From contig CM126218.1 of NCBI GenBank assembly GCA_052327205.1, positions 54,126,001 to 54,190,000 of the forward strand: a stretch of 64,000 nt of DNA, given 5' to 3'. Under the pieces are notes generated by a model that was not told the origin of the DNA, searched no databases, and was given only the letters and a program-made list of their open reading frames with translations. Below are positions 1-57,115 of this stretch, piece after piece (the first letter of the stretch is position 1; each line of letters starts with the position of its first letter). The position numbers were made by a program, and so were the translations under genes. This DNA is from Somniosus microcephalus (lineage: Eukaryota).

Positions 1-1
1 C

Positions 2-2008
2 CAGCTGGACGTTAGCCAGCTCTTGTTCCAAATCCAGACATCTTTCCTGAAGAGACTTCTTCATGTGTACCTCTGCATCCAGCTTTTTCTGGGCTTTCAG
101 CAAGTCGTTTACTAGTGACCTCATTTGTGATTTTAATACTTCAACTTCCTTTGGAGATTGATTGATCGGACTATGCAATCCCTCTACCGGAGCAGCTGTT
201 TCAGCGGTCTGTTGTTCTACATTGACGTGAGTCAGCGTACTTTTGGCATCCAATGGCTGCTCTGTTGCAGTCGTTTCAGTCTGTGTCGTCACATCAGCCA
301 TCTCAATGACTTTTGAGAGCTCCAAACCTTTTTCCTTTGAAGATCGCAGCTCGTGTTCAAGTTTTTCCCATTTCAGAGTCTTGTCCCTCAGCATATGAAG
401 GAGTTGGCTGACCGTTAACTCTTCTGACACCAGATTATGGCACGCACCTTCAGAACCTGAATCAGCTTTGATTCGTTCGGCCTCCTCGCGCAGATGGTTG
501 GTGTGCTCCTGCTCCATTTTCTCCATCAGTTGCTTCTGTTGCCTTTCCAGATTCTCCCACTCTGTAACAAAGAACTTTTTTATTTCATTCATCTCTTGCT
601 CAAAACGGCGAATCATTTGTTCTAATTGCTGTTGTAGTTTGAAATGGAGTTGAGTTCGAGCCCAGTGTCCCTCAAGAATGTGCATATCAGTAGACTTGAC
701 AGACTCAGAATTCTCTGTTAAACTATGTTGTTGTTGCTCAGTGGAATTCTGTGCTGAAACTTTGTCTTTTGCACATGGGTTGGTCTTACCATCATCAGTT
801 CTAGAGTCTGGGCTGATTATCTGCACCGAGTTCTCACTCTTTATGGCTTTTAGCGAATGCCAGTCCATATTTATGTTTCTAAACCACTCCCGGCCTAGTA
901 GTGGTGGACCTCCCTCCGGTAGCACATATAAGTCCATTATTTGACTTCCTTCACCCTTGTTGGCCACTGCAACCTTTATTGTCCCGATGGGGTACACTCT
1001 CTGCCCCGTGTAGGTTGTCAATATAATCTCCGTATCCTGTAGGGGAATATGTTGGAATAACCTTCTGTAATCTTTCTTATTCATGACTGACAATGCCGAT
1101 CCAGTGTCCAATTCCATTTTTACTTGGACTCCTTCTATCTGAAGAGTAACCCAAATTGTCTGGAGGTCTGCACCCTTACCAATGTTGAGTACCCTTAAGC
1201 TAGCCAGTTCAATACTGCTTAAGCCAGCCAGTTCATTACTGCTAGCGTCTGAATCGGACTCCTGTTCGGCCACCTTGTGTACCTTTGCGTATTTTCCTTG
1301 CGGTGACTTCTTGTTGCTGGTCTTCTTCCCTGACCTGCATACTCTAGCTATGTGTCCAAGCCTACCACAAGTTCTACATTCTTGGTTTTTAAACCAACAC
1401 TGGTTCTGATCATGCGTTGTCTTTCCACAACGATAACATTTGCCAGAACTCACACCCAATTTGTGTGCACTGAGCTCCGGTGACTGTAGCTGCATTACTG
1501 CCGTGCCTCTCGCTGCGGCTTCATGTGCTGCTGCCATAGTGACCGCCTTCTCAAGCGTCAGCTCATTCTCCTCGAGCAGTTGCTTTTGTGTATCCTGTTT
1601 AAATAAACCACACACAAATTTGTCTCGTAGTGCATCTGTCAGTCCCGTTCCAAACTGGCAATATTTCGCTAATTTACGCAATTCCAGCAAATATTCAGCA
1701 TTGCTTTCATGCTGTAGCTGCCTTCTGTCGTAAAATTTAAATCGTTCCGCTAGCATCAGCGGCGTGGGGTTTAGATGATCTTTCAGGACAGTAACAATCT
1801 CATCGAACGTCTTATCCGCCGGTTCATCTGGTGATAACAGGTGTTTCAATTGCCCGTATGTCTTCGCACCCATTAAATTTAATAATGTTAGTGCTTTATC
1901 AGCCTCACGAATTTTATTGGCCTTACAATAATTTTTAACTCGTTCAACATATATGGCCCAATCTTCAATGTCACTATCAAAGTTGCTAATATTCCCGTGT
2001 TTAGGCAT
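2..2008 (-). CDS. Gypsy (Mag-like) Gag-protease polyprotein fused in frame to STK10/SLK-like and optineurin-like coiled-coil segments; 3' end runs off the window
   Basis: Hand translation of the - strand from ATG at 2008 (in-frame TAA upstream at 2018-2020) gives 669 codons with no stop. Sequence: [33 protein letters not shown]...[14 protein letters not shown]...[11 protein letters not shown]...; zinc knuckles [14 protein letters not shown] (1438-1397) and [14 protein letters not shown] (1378-1337); protease [12 protein letters not shown] (DTG at 1108-1100) and PPLLGREWF; then coiled-coil segments. It is absent from the ORF track, probably because no stop lies inside the window. Confidence 0.92.
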
Positions 2009-2568: not shown

Positions 2569-2578
2569 CTCATCGCCA
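2569..2578 (-). promoter_or_regulatory. Primer binding site, tRNA-Ser(GCT)-type
   Basis: TGGCGATGAG sits 1 nt after the LTR-terminal CA. It matches the TGGCGACGAG PBS typical of Mag-clade elements with one wobble position. Confidence 0.75.
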
Positions 2579-2579
2579 G

Positions 2580-2815
2580 TGTTAAGTCTGTGAATTATTT
2601 AGTTAATTAAGACACAGACTAATGAGTAACAATAAAAACAGGTCTTTACTGGTTGGAGGTAGGGACTATACTGAATACAAGATTACTGCACAGTGCTTAT
2701 ATACCGGTGTGTTCACCCCCGGTATTACGTCTACAGCAGCCTGAGAAAGTAGTACATCTCTTAAGGTGGAACAGGCTTAAGCTCTCTTAAGGTGGAACAG
2801 GTTACATACACAACA
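2580..2815 (-). repeat. 5' LTR (~236 bp)
   Basis: On the - strand it begins TGTTG and ends TTAACA, directly followed by the PBS. It contains TATATAAG and a duplicated ctcttaaggtggaacagg. The partner LTR is outside the window, so the outer boundary is inferred. Confidence 0.75.
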
Positions 2816-3689
2816 GTCATAACTATTTGTTGTGTAGAAAAGCCCACTCTGCTTTTGTGCGGGTGGTGATTGCCGGCACAAGTGTCGTTTTCTCATCCCT
2901 TCCTCACGCTACCTGGTATAAGGAAATAGAAGGACTTGAAAAATTGGGTATTTTTTTCGTTAGAAGGCGGCAGATTACGGGGCGATATGATAGTATTTAC
3001 ATTTAGGAAGAGCGGGTCTGGTGGCAAGAGGGTTGATTAAAAGCTGAATTCATGTTGTATGTTTGTAGTAATTCTGATGAGTTTTAAATTGACCTTCATG
3101 GATACAGTGTTTAGAATCCAGGCACGTATAGACTTTGTGTATTGATAGCCCGAGTTCACTGCTTGGGTGCTTTATCATAAAAGCGATGTCACACTTAAAG
3201 GTAGATTCTGTTTTTACTGATCTTATCACTCTTTTCATTAATATTTGAAATCTAGGACATCTTTGATATCTATGCAAAGTAAAATATTTCAGAGGATTGA
3301 CAATATCTCAAATCCTTAAATTATACTGCGGGAGTGAAAGACCTTGCTCATTCTACCATATTGGAGTGGGAATTAGGGGCGATTTTACTTTGCATAAATC
3401 ACTTACAAAAATTAAAATGAATCGTTTCAATTAGCATTTCAAAAATGCTGGTGAAAAATCTATCCCAACTGATTGCTTTTTTTATGCATATATCATCATA
3501 GCATTGGCGCTTTCTGTTTAATAGTGGTGTGTCTCTTTAATAGTGATGTCTGCACACACCTCAACTGAAATATCAGCAAACAAGCTGTTATCTGTTAATG
3601 ACTCTGGAAATCTGACTAAAACTTGCCCGCATAACTATGAAATCCTTGTTATATCCACTTATTAGCACTCAAGAATGTCAGTAAAAAGT

Positions 3690-3994: not shown

Positions 3995-6330
3995 GTCTAC
4001 AGCACAGAAACAGACCATTCGGCCCAACTGGTCTGTGCCGGTGTTTGTGCTCCACTCGAGCCTCCTCTCACCCCTCTTCATCTAACCCCATCAACATAAC
4101 CTTCTATTCCTTTCTCCTCATGTGTTTAACTAGCTTCCCCTTAAATGCATCTATACTATTTGCCTCAACTACTCCTTGTGGTAGCAATTTCCACATTCTC
4201 ATCACTCTCTGGGTAAAGTAGCTTCACCTGAATTACCTTTTGGATTTATTAGTGACTATCTTATATTTATGACCTCTAGTTCTGGTCTTGCCTGCAAGTG
4301 GAAACACCTTCTCTATGTCTACCTGATCAACCCTTTTATAATCTTAAAGACCACTATCAGGTCACCCCTCAGCCTTCCCTTTTCTAGGGAAAAGATCCCC
4401 AGCCTGTTCAATCTTTCCTGATAGGTATAACCTCTCATTTCTGGTATCATTCTAGTAAATCTTTTGTGCACCATTTTCAGTGTCTCTATATCCTTTTTAT
4501 AATATGAAGACCAAGGGGGAAAAATTGGGTTGGTTTGTGCCTCGCGTTAGCTCCCTCGGGGGGCGCAAACGGGGCGCAAAGCCCCCAGCGCCTGGGCACG
4601 GCACCGCTAACGCCTCCCATGAAATTCAGCGGGAGGTTAGTGGCGGTGGTAGCGCCTCTGGTGATGATGTCATCGCCGTGTGCAGCGCCCTGCTCGTGTC
4701 CCGACCGCAAACTTCGGTCGCGCCCCCGGACTTATCGCCGGACAATATGTCCGACAGGGTCAGGGTGGTGTTTTTGTGGCTGCGGCAGCGCAAATTAAAG
4801 GGCAGGTGCCGGGCAGCCATTTTTTTTTGGCCGCCTGCCAGCACCTACCCCCTTCTGCTTCTTCATGCGGGGTGCCGGCCGCGATTGGTCAGCCCGGCAC
4901 TCCCCTTGAGTGTCGGGCTGTTTTCCCAACACCTCGCTCTCTGGTGGTCCAGCAGGGCCCTGGTGTGTGCTGCGCTAGGCCCCTTCCCTTTAATCAGGGG
5001 AGGGAGGCCTGTAATACCGCAGAGTTACGTGCTGACGTGCGTGGCGCTGTTGCGCGTAACGCCGTGATAATGAATGGTAGCGCCCCTGGAAGGAGGGGGA
5101 GCGCTTCCAGTAGCGCCCAGCCTCCTGCTTGAGGCGCTACCACTCAATTTACGGAGCAGAAGTGCTAACCTTTTCGGGGCACTAAAAGTAGCGCCCTGGT
5201 GAAGTTAGCGCCCCAAAGGGGGCGCGACCGAATTTTTCACCCCAAAACTGTTCACAGTACTCCCAAATGTGGTTTAACGAAGGTTCTATACAAGTTTAAC
5301 ATAACTTCTCTGCTTTTTAATTCTATCCCTCTAGAAATGCTTTGTTTGTTTTTTATGGCCTTAACCTGCATCGCTACTTTTAATGATTTGTATATCTGTA
5401 CCCCCAGATTCCTCTGCTCCTCTACCCCATTTAGACACTTATTTTTCCAAGGTGTCTGTGGCCTCTTCATTCTTCCTATTTAAATGCACCACTTCACACT
5501 TATCTATATTGAAATTAATTTGCCAATTACACGCACATTCTGCAACTTTATTAATGTCTTCCTGTATTTTTTGCATTCTTCCTTTGTATTAACTACACCT
5601 TCCAATTTGGCATCGTCGGCAAATTTAGAAATTGTACTTCAGATTCCCAAGTTCAAATCGTTAATGTAAATTGTGAACAACTGTGGTCCCAGCACCAATC
5701 CTTGTGGAAAACCACTTCCCACCTTTTGCTAGTCTGAGTAACTACCTTTTACCCCTGCTCTCTGTTTTCTATTTTGTAGCCAGCTTGCTATCCATTCTGC
5801 TACTTGTCCCCTGACTCCACATGCTCTGACCTTAGTCATGAGTCTACTATGTTATCCTCTCCTTTATTGTCCATCTACCTAGTGTATGCCTTTTTCTTTA
5901 GTTTCAATTTTACTTTTATCTCTTTATTCATCCATGGTGTTTCATTATTGGCTAGTTTGTTCTTGTTTTTTAGTGGAATATATTTCTCTTGAACTGTATT
6001 GATCACTGTTTTAAATATTTCCCACTGCTGTTCTGTCTCTTCGCCTGCCAATTTTTTTTCCAGTTTATCTTCCCTAGTTCCATTCTCATCCCCTCAAAAT
6101 TAGCTTTTTTTCAATCTATTACTTTGGACTTTGTCTTACTTATGTCTTTCTCAATCTTATTTTGAACCTTATTATGTTATGCTTGCTATTGCCTAGTTGT
6201 TCCCCTACTTCTCTTATCTACTCTGGTTCCTTTCCCATTACTAGATCCAGCAGTGATTCCTCTCTTGTTGGGTTATTATGTACCGGGTAAGAAAGTAGTC
6301 CTGAACATACTGCAAAAACTCCATTGCCTT
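3995..6330 (-). mobile_element. CR1 LINE, fragmented and interrupted by a MITE at 4515-5243
   Basis: CR1 3' tail at ~3995; RT C-terminal remnant RGIELKSREVMLNLYRTFVKPHL (5252-5470); endonuclease-side motif PTREESLLDLVMG near 6230-6280. Confidence 0.8.
4515..5243. mobile_element. GC-rich non-autonomous DNA transposon (PIF/Harbinger-like MITE)
   Basis: Terminal inverted repeats GGGGGAAAAATT...AATTTTTCACCCC. CR1 sequence resumes on both sides. A related copy lies in opposite orientation at 62002-62668. Confidence 0.8.
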
Positions 6331-56485: not shown

Positions 56486-57115
56486 CTCCCAATATGCCAC
56501 TCTCCGTACCTCCCAATATGCCACTCTCCGTACCTCCCAATATGCCACTCTCCGTACCTCCCAATATGCCACTCTCCGTACCTCCCAATATGCCACTCTC
56601 CGTACCTCCCAATATGCCACACTCAGTACCTCCCAATATGCCACTCTCCGTACCTCCCAATATGCCACTCTCCGTACCTCCCAATATGCCACTCTCCGTA
56701 CCTCCCAATATGCCACTCTCCGTACCTCCCAATATGCCACTCTCCGTACCTCCCAATATGCCACTCTCCGTACCTCCCAATATGCCACTCCCCGTACCTC
56801 CCAATATGCCACTCTCAGTACCTCCCAATATGCCACTCTCCGTACCTCCCAATATGCCACTCTCCGTACCTCCCAATATGCCACTCTCCGTACCTCCCAA
56901 TATGCCACTCTCAGTACCTCCCAATATGCCACTCTCCGTACCTCCCAATATGCCACTCTCAGTACCTCCCAATATGCCACTCTCCGTACCTCCCAATATG
57001 CCACTCTCCGTACCTCCCAATATGCCACTCTCAGTACCTCCCAATATGCCACTCTCAGTACCTCCCAATATGCCACTCTCTGTACCTCCCAATATGCCAC
57101 TCTCTGTACCTCCCA
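56486..57115. repeat. 24-bp minisatellite, ~26 copies
   Basis: Unit cctcccaatatgccactctc(c/a/t)gta repeated in tandem. Confidence 0.97.

Follow-up and report, generated by a model that had tools for sequence, protein, structure and literature searches.

An LTR retrotransposon family of Somniosus microcephalus carries STK10 exons in a permuted order that points to a circular RNA template

The window analyzed here is a stretch of 64,000 nucleotides of Somniosus microcephalus (GCA_052327205.1, contig CM126218.1, positions 54,126,001 to 54,190,000), at the start of which lies a young, 3.6-kb, non-autonomous LTR retrotransposon of the Ty3/Gypsy type that lacks reverse transcriptase. The element extends beyond the window start and has a total of 3,630 bp, with its long terminal repeats (LTRs), target-site duplication, primer-site motif and purine tract as bounds. 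Comparison of the LTR pair placed the 5' LTR (236 bp, TGT...ACA) at 2580..2815 on the minus strand and the 3' LTR before the window start (L001:8186-8421), with one base different between them. The 5-bp target-site duplication, GTCAT, is found at 2816..2820 and again at L001:8181-8185; a primer-binding-site motif, TGGCGATGAG, adjoins the 5' LTR at 2569..2578 (minus strand), and a polypurine tract precedes the 3' LTR. This motif would fit tRNA-Ser; no tRNA genes were found in the window. A single open reading frame (ORF) of 771 amino acids starts at 2008, occupies 1..2008 on the minus strand and ends in a stop at L001:8693, beyond the window start; it encodes Gag, protease, and pieces of STK10, optineurin (OPTN) and a zinc-finger protein. 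The Gag with CCHC knuckles and the retroviral-type aspartic protease (protease at approximately 878-1150) were assigned to 841..2008 (minus strand) by Pfam and by comparison with relatives; both Pfam matches are under the curated cut-offs in the window copy, and the protease is over the cut-off in the copy L008. TG..CA LTRs, a target-site duplication, a polypurine tract, a CCHC Gag and an aspartic protease together characterize a Ty3/Gypsy LTR retrotransposon. Reverse transcriptase (RT), RNase H and integrase were absent from the 771-aa ORF in the Pfam search and are present, in that order, in the relative L142, so the window copy is non-autonomous.

The gag-protease region of the window copy is 77-85% identical, at the nucleotide level, to that of pol-bearing relatives. 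It is nearer to L142 (85%) than to L145 (77%), and some copies (L072, L081) have a different integrase tail, which suggests that recombination transferred the cargo cassette between helper subfamilies. Elsewhere in the window, the region 4646-5236 is GC-rich, with nested inverted repeats, and is possibly a MITE-like repeat, and at 56486-57115 a 24-bp tandem repeat in 26 copies opens ORFs in several frames, with no gene signal.

The original prediction had placed a fragment of the PKK coiled coil of STK10/SLK at 461-673 (minus strand) inside a retroelement ORF, and this was borne out: the ORF is the one of Gag and protease that starts at 2008, the fragment matched Pfam PF12474 with an E-value of 3.4e-14 and 53.6 bits against a cut-off of 25, and the 71-aa piece is gap-free and identical to the host STK10 exons at 191/213 nt. 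The match is partial, covering positions 1-59 of the 139 of the profile. A kinase domain had been said to be missing, and indeed no kinase family was matched by Pfam in the piece or in the 771-aa ORF. It had also been proposed that an exon-exon junction within the fragment would be evidence of RNA-mediated capture. Such a joint lies at 587/586, where the 3' part of STK10 exon d, with which the PKK piece starts (587..673), is spliced to the 5' part of exon e (462..586; both on the minus strand by alignment to the host exons); the 1,029-nt intron between them is missing, so the capture was from RNA.

The captured STK10 sequence is longer than had been predicted. It also includes window 663-840, with two pieces of exon b on the minus strand, one at 762..840 (positions 326-404 of the circle described below, 94% identical to the host) and another, after an in-frame deletion, at 663..765 (circle positions 470-571, 89% identical), in addition to a remnant that lies 3' of the stop codon and barely beyond the window. 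The exon e piece ends in a 9-nt microhomology with optineurin, and the next 150 residues after the PKK piece are a second capture, from that gene. Comparison with the host gene identified, on the minus strand, a piece of optineurin exon 3 (in our own exon numbering) at 428..470 and exons 5-8, spliced and colinear, at 1..434, with joints near 329, 160 and 43. The optineurin piece of the window has 69% protein identity to a shark optineurin, and the C-terminal cargo region has, as its relatives with a name, optineurins and proteins of the STK10/SLK type, the nearest being from sharks. A zinc-finger piece, which fell in Pfam zf-C2H2_jaz and in a chordate C2H2 cluster of the Atlas, ends the ORF; its donor may be DNAJC21.

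The donor STK10 exons were located on C8 of the genome (G000) by way of an intronless 3' STK10 copy (L003), together with two paralogs. The five exons, a to e, are 135, 675, 131, 124 and 180 nt long and correspond, in colinear order, to residues 291-704 of a shark STK10; STK10 proteins normally follow the order a-e, and each exon is single-copy in the host region searched. To judge from identity, the donor is the host lineage's own STK10, because the simplest copies of the family are 98-99% identical to these exons, whereas the host exons have 94, 88, 82 and 71% protein identity to those of four other cartilaginous fishes. The paralog on C30 was discarded as donor, as it is only approximately 71-80% identical at the nucleotide level; this DNA-level comparison refers to C30, the PKK-1 exons of the paralog at C8:2.2 Mb lying outside the 60 kb covered. 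Other observations were made around the host gene. The intron after exon c (G000:C8, L166 near 2182) seems to begin with GC, as in GC-AG introns. A pol-bearing Gypsy relative, approximately 70% identical, lies in an STK10 intron just upstream of the circularized exons and on the strand of the gene (L047-L048, G000:C8:167208300-167212500), and it is too diverged for a direct parent. The intronless copy used above (L003/L165, G000:C3:354658212-354658945) contains the five 3'-most STK10 coding exons with 98-100% identity and adjoins a LINE-like fragment; it is a linear retrocopy of the ordinary kind, made from a part of the gene that the circle does not include.

In the family, the exon that comes after e is a, which lies upstream in the host gene. 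This order was observed in 29/29 of the top PKK loci, and in all 18 loci tested the e|a joint coincides to the base with the GT donor of e and with the AG acceptor in front of a (20 loci were fetched, and the window copy and L076, which have no junction, were left out). Genome-wide, the e|a junction gave 1,139 matches and the reversed control none. The simplest copies (L066, L067, L078, L082 and L083) consist of gag-protease, circle positions 281-1245, circle positions 1-294 and an integrase tail. Thus the insert begins inside exon b, runs through b-c-d-e, goes back to a-b and ends at the motif where it started, with a net length of one turn, 1,245 nt, which is a multiple of three and stop-free. 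At both ends these copies adjoin element sequence, with nothing from outside exons a-e and no poly(A) tail. The pol-bearing relative L145 is 96-98% identical to them in the shared parts; in comparison with it, 14/15 nt are common at the 5' switch, and GATGAG, the same motif of the circle, is common at the 3' switch. The permuted exon order points to a circRNA template, and the arrangement is the signature that a captured circRNA would leave. The window copy has lost the e|a junction because of later captures; the last part of exon a and the first part of b are kept downstream of e, beyond the stop, and this copy retains the permuted exon order only, which counts against the circle reading.

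The family is large, with thousands of copies, and the window copy is one of its derived members. A 34-mer from exon d, which was derived from the window copy and biases the sample toward its type, had 7,458 matches in the genome with up to 2 mismatches. A Pfam search of the same genome gave 16,569 first-look candidates, 150 of which were scored, and the protease-to-RT junction pattern of the pol-bearing relatives had 10,243 matches with up to 1 mismatch. Of 25 chimeric copies, a selection from the loci retrieved, 24 have an LTR pair; the pairs are 97-100% identical, with one at 92%, and such near-identical LTRs imply recent activity. Of the first 30 exact matches of the exon-d pattern on C1, 7 have the e|a junction and 22 carry optineurin; the a|b tail is retained in 27, and in 24 the frame is open between Gag and PKK. 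Among the matches listed in length-limited searches there was no chimeric Gag-cargo protein of another species, which is weak evidence.

Other members carry other host genes. Approximately 3.3 kb before the window element there is a second family member (L001:263-4860) with a 1,128-aa ORF, whose cargo comprises STK10, ankycorbin-like (ankycorbin/ANKRD24-like), EVI5, optineurin and zinc-finger pieces. The ankycorbin-like cargo is also permuted: the penultimate exon of the host gene (TTCAG|gt) is fused, with both splice sites exact, to the beginning of the large upstream exon (tttcag|GAG). This back-splice junction had 4,009 matches genome-wide; all 20 loci sampled also carry STK10 pieces, and 15 of the 20 are open from the protease to the junction. 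By its exon order, the ankycorbin-like piece is a second back-spliced cargo, which entered the family after STK10; the optineurin, EVI5, KMT2A, Ig-repeat and zinc-finger pieces are later additions too. Family copies are also present within the host's ankycorbin-like gene and immediately after it (L161:3015-3200 and L163, about 5614-5811), and one of them carries that gene's own penultimate exon.

For the optineurin, EVI5 and KMT2A cargos the order is the normal one, which counts against circles: the fullest copies of the optineurin cargo, whose host gene is on C17, carry six spliced, colinear exons, and the EVI5 and KMT2A cargos are colinear at the protein level. A search for the optineurin C-terminal region gave 4 matches, all in the host gene, so that this region is uncaptured. 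The KMT2A cargo is 90% identical to a ray protein, and at L008:1993-2463 (minus strand) it contains the motif QVDGADD, a candidate Taspase-1 cleavage site. In addition, some copies have I-set Ig repeats, a cargo of the titin/obscurin class. In PDB searches the cargo region had no match, and the KMT2A and zinc-finger pieces were not named. At L081:3700-4158 (plus strand) there is a 153-codon in-frame insert with no Pfam match, which may resemble BAZ1/BAZ2 proteins, and the insert of L013/L071 is the 3' end of a LINE that breaks the frame and was taken as a later insertion. Across the family there are at least seven donors (STK10, ankycorbin-like, optineurin, EVI5, KMT2A, Ig-repeat and zinc-finger).

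Two RNA runs and two contig sets, which may come from related species in the case of the runs, were compared with the host STK10 locus. All four contain the e|a joint (76 and 60 reads in the runs) and also the b-to-d deletion, which exists only in the element (144 and 117 reads). The depth on exon c, which the host and the simplest copies alone retain, was approximately 0.1-2; on exon e it was 200-400. Strand bias is strong in run X6 and has the direction that sense RNA would give. Five runs that are non-RNA or of unrecorded type, under three organism labels, contained 66-77% of the words. The family is transcribed in the sense direction and swamps the host signal. The e|a reads are best read as transcripts of the element, because the b-to-d deletion occurs together with them and exon c is almost uncovered; since these transcripts swamp those of the host, a live STK10 circRNA is not readable from these runs. 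It should be noted that, in shark data, copies of the family can simulate circRNA calls, as well as expression levels and expansions of the STK10, OPTN, EVI5, ankycorbin-like and KMT2A gene families.

From the structure of the copies we consider it likely that this non-autonomous Ty3/Gypsy element arose by template switching in a virus-like particle, with the capture of one turn of an STK10 circRNA. The sequence shows that pol was replaced in frame by the five STK10 exons. The RT would leave the integrase tail at a microhomology of 6-9 nt, copy a co-packaged STK10 circRNA once round, and return to the element at the 14/15-nt microhomology after the protease; destruction of the template by RNase H behind the RT would limit copying to one lap. 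The resulting chimera, which retains the LTRs, the primer site and the polypurine tract and would make its own Gag-protease, would be mobilized in trans by the RT and integrase of pol-bearing relatives. Later switches would add other host RNAs, among them a second back-spliced one and several linear, spliced ones, and delete parts. Selection would act mainly for a long, open and translatable Gag fusion, with mild constraint on the cargo residues, and such a fusion probably favours RNA stability, by escape from nonsense-mediated decay, and cis-acting Gag.

The reading frame gives information on what is maintained. In our own tally, which left out the two junctions of the L081 insert and the LINE insertion of L013/L071, the host frame stays in register with that of Gag at 24 of 25 distinct types of junction, and the sole out-of-frame type is near the 3' end; the null in-frame rate of chance microhomologies among these sequences is 0.47-0.58 (P <= 2.5e-5). 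Many of the loci were obtained by protein searches, in which intact copies are favoured. In the window cargo approximately 4.7 stops were expected and none was seen. Over 278 codons, the dN/dS of this cargo against the host exons was 0.48 with kappa 2 (p 5e-4) and 0.58 with kappa 4 (p 0.011), these and the following estimates being pairwise, non-independent, as the lineages share history, and kappa-dependent, with significance fading at higher kappa. The gag-protease gave 0.26-0.32 against the nearest sampled relative. The translated STK10 part had a pN/pS of 0.38-0.47 in 4/5 copies (kappa near 2.3) and of 0.80 in L169, a lineage without sign of constraint (its estimates span 0.80-1.13), and the STK10 remnant 3' of the stop had 0.86-1.68, over only 22-39 codons. 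Taken together, the translated cargo shows moderate purifying selection (about 0.4-0.6). Selection on the element's own ORF implies cis action, according to PMC9073684.

The most likely role of the cargo, in our opinion by a modest preference, would be that of a tolerated stuffer that replaces Pol, and not that of a working STK10 domain. It is unlikely, but worth considering, that the cargo protein works for the element, with coiled coils of STK10 or optineurin that, once released, would serve as decoys or scaffolds and might, for example, counter autophagy or the innate sensing of particles, a role that would explain the expansion of these lineages. Optineurin acts in autophagy and TBK1 signalling. 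A dN/dS below 1, the 22 optineurin carriers among the 30 matches of that biased, window-derived sample, and a family RNA far above the host exon c coverage agree with such a role; against it, the cargos are interchangeable and repeatedly deleted, the optineurin C-terminal region is uncaptured, and the PKK piece is less than half of the domain. A broader proposal, to which we give the same low credence, is that of a vertebrate "pack" LTR element, whose particles would repeatedly sample circRNAs and whose coiled coils would be translated, released by the protease and selected, e.g. as decoys of optineurin or STK10 partners. If it were true, the family would supply far more exon RNA than the host genes and could modulate them.

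With regard to the template, a linear RNA with repeated exons, generated by trans-splicing or exon repetition, or an allele with tandemly duplicated exons, would give the same non-colinear junction as a circle. The RNA reads show no distinguishable live circle, and the host introns that were searched contained no inverted repeats of the kind that favours back-splicing, as this explanation would have it. Nevertheless, we regard it as quite improbable: the host region has a single copy of each exon, the simplest copies took nothing beyond exons a-e, and the same pattern is found in a second gene, the ankycorbin-like one.

Two further alternatives have lower standing. It is very improbable that the cargo is purely neutral filler, with the frame kept because microhomologies in coding sequences tend to be in frame; the raised null rate and the unconstrained L169 are in line with this idea, but the P value of the 24/25 in-frame junction types, the absence of the expected stops and the dN/dS of the translated part, below that of the untranslated remnant, oppose it. 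A jump of the RT from the start of one exon to the end of another between two linear mRNAs could mimic a back-splice, given that template switches are frequent in the family, that exon ends share AG-like letters and that the ankycorbin-like junction could share CAG/G (the end of the preceding exon being unread), but this is hardly credible when only 2 nt are shared at the STK10 e|a junction, against approximately 4-15 nt at the other junctions read, and both splice sites are exact to the base in two genes.

The capture of a circRNA by template switching, our preferred reading, can be compared with known systems. Pol loss, the need for a helper and gag-host fusion are known from non-autonomous Ty3/Gypsy elements (Metaviridae) and from retroviral oncogene transduction. 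The shark element differs from these in being non-enveloped and germline, in its serial, multi-gene cargo and in that there is no catalytic domain among the identified cargos. In comparison with STK10/LOK itself, of the STE20 family, the cargo has no kinase domain, only a partial first PKK repeat and a permuted order.

In animals, LTR-mediated retroposition, in which spliced host RNA replaces the internal ORF with microsimilarity at the switch points, has been described by Tan et al. (2016, PMC5131818), with more than one parent gene, and with secondary amplification and transcription in sense direction. The replacement of the ORF by spliced RNA, the switch-point microsimilarity, the amplification and the sense transcription are all observed here. 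However, the cases in that text have few copies and up to four parent genes, with 1-5 copies given for maize Bs1, whereas the shark family has thousands of copies and at least seven donors. Furthermore, "in frame" refers there to the parental protein and here to a cargo in frame with a selected Gag-protease, and "circ" is absent from that main text, whereas the templates of the shark family would be circular. The family represents serial in-frame exon shuffling at a scale of thousands of copies in a vertebrate.

The second known process is that of circRNA-derived pseudogenes, recognized in genomic DNA by a non-colinear back-splice junction and the lack of a poly(A) tail (Dong et al. 2016, PMC4897178); in the sections of that paper drawn on here, mouse circRFWD2 has 33 copies from one circle, with an LTR association. 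The shark family is alike in its non-colinear junction at splice sites, with no outside exons and no poly(A). In those sections the role of LTRs is limited to enrichment at the flanks, and "mysterious" is the word used for the mechanism, whereas the shark family keeps intact LTRs, the target-site duplication, helper relatives and both switch points, and its insert is exactly one turn, with 1,139 and 4,009 copies and the circle in a translated frame. In the literature searched by title and start of abstract, no description of this family, or of circRNA capture inside an intact LTR element, was found; the supplements of both papers, which contain further cases, repeat libraries and subscription journals are outside this scope, and a prior description is possible. 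The family joins LTR-mediated retroposition with the formation of circRNA-derived pseudogenes, both of them known processes. The route of circRNA retrotransposition was left open in the sections consulted of PMC4897178, and the shark family preserves the whole event twice; with the LTRs, the helper lineage, both switch points and a one-turn insert preserved, the mechanism becomes directly testable.
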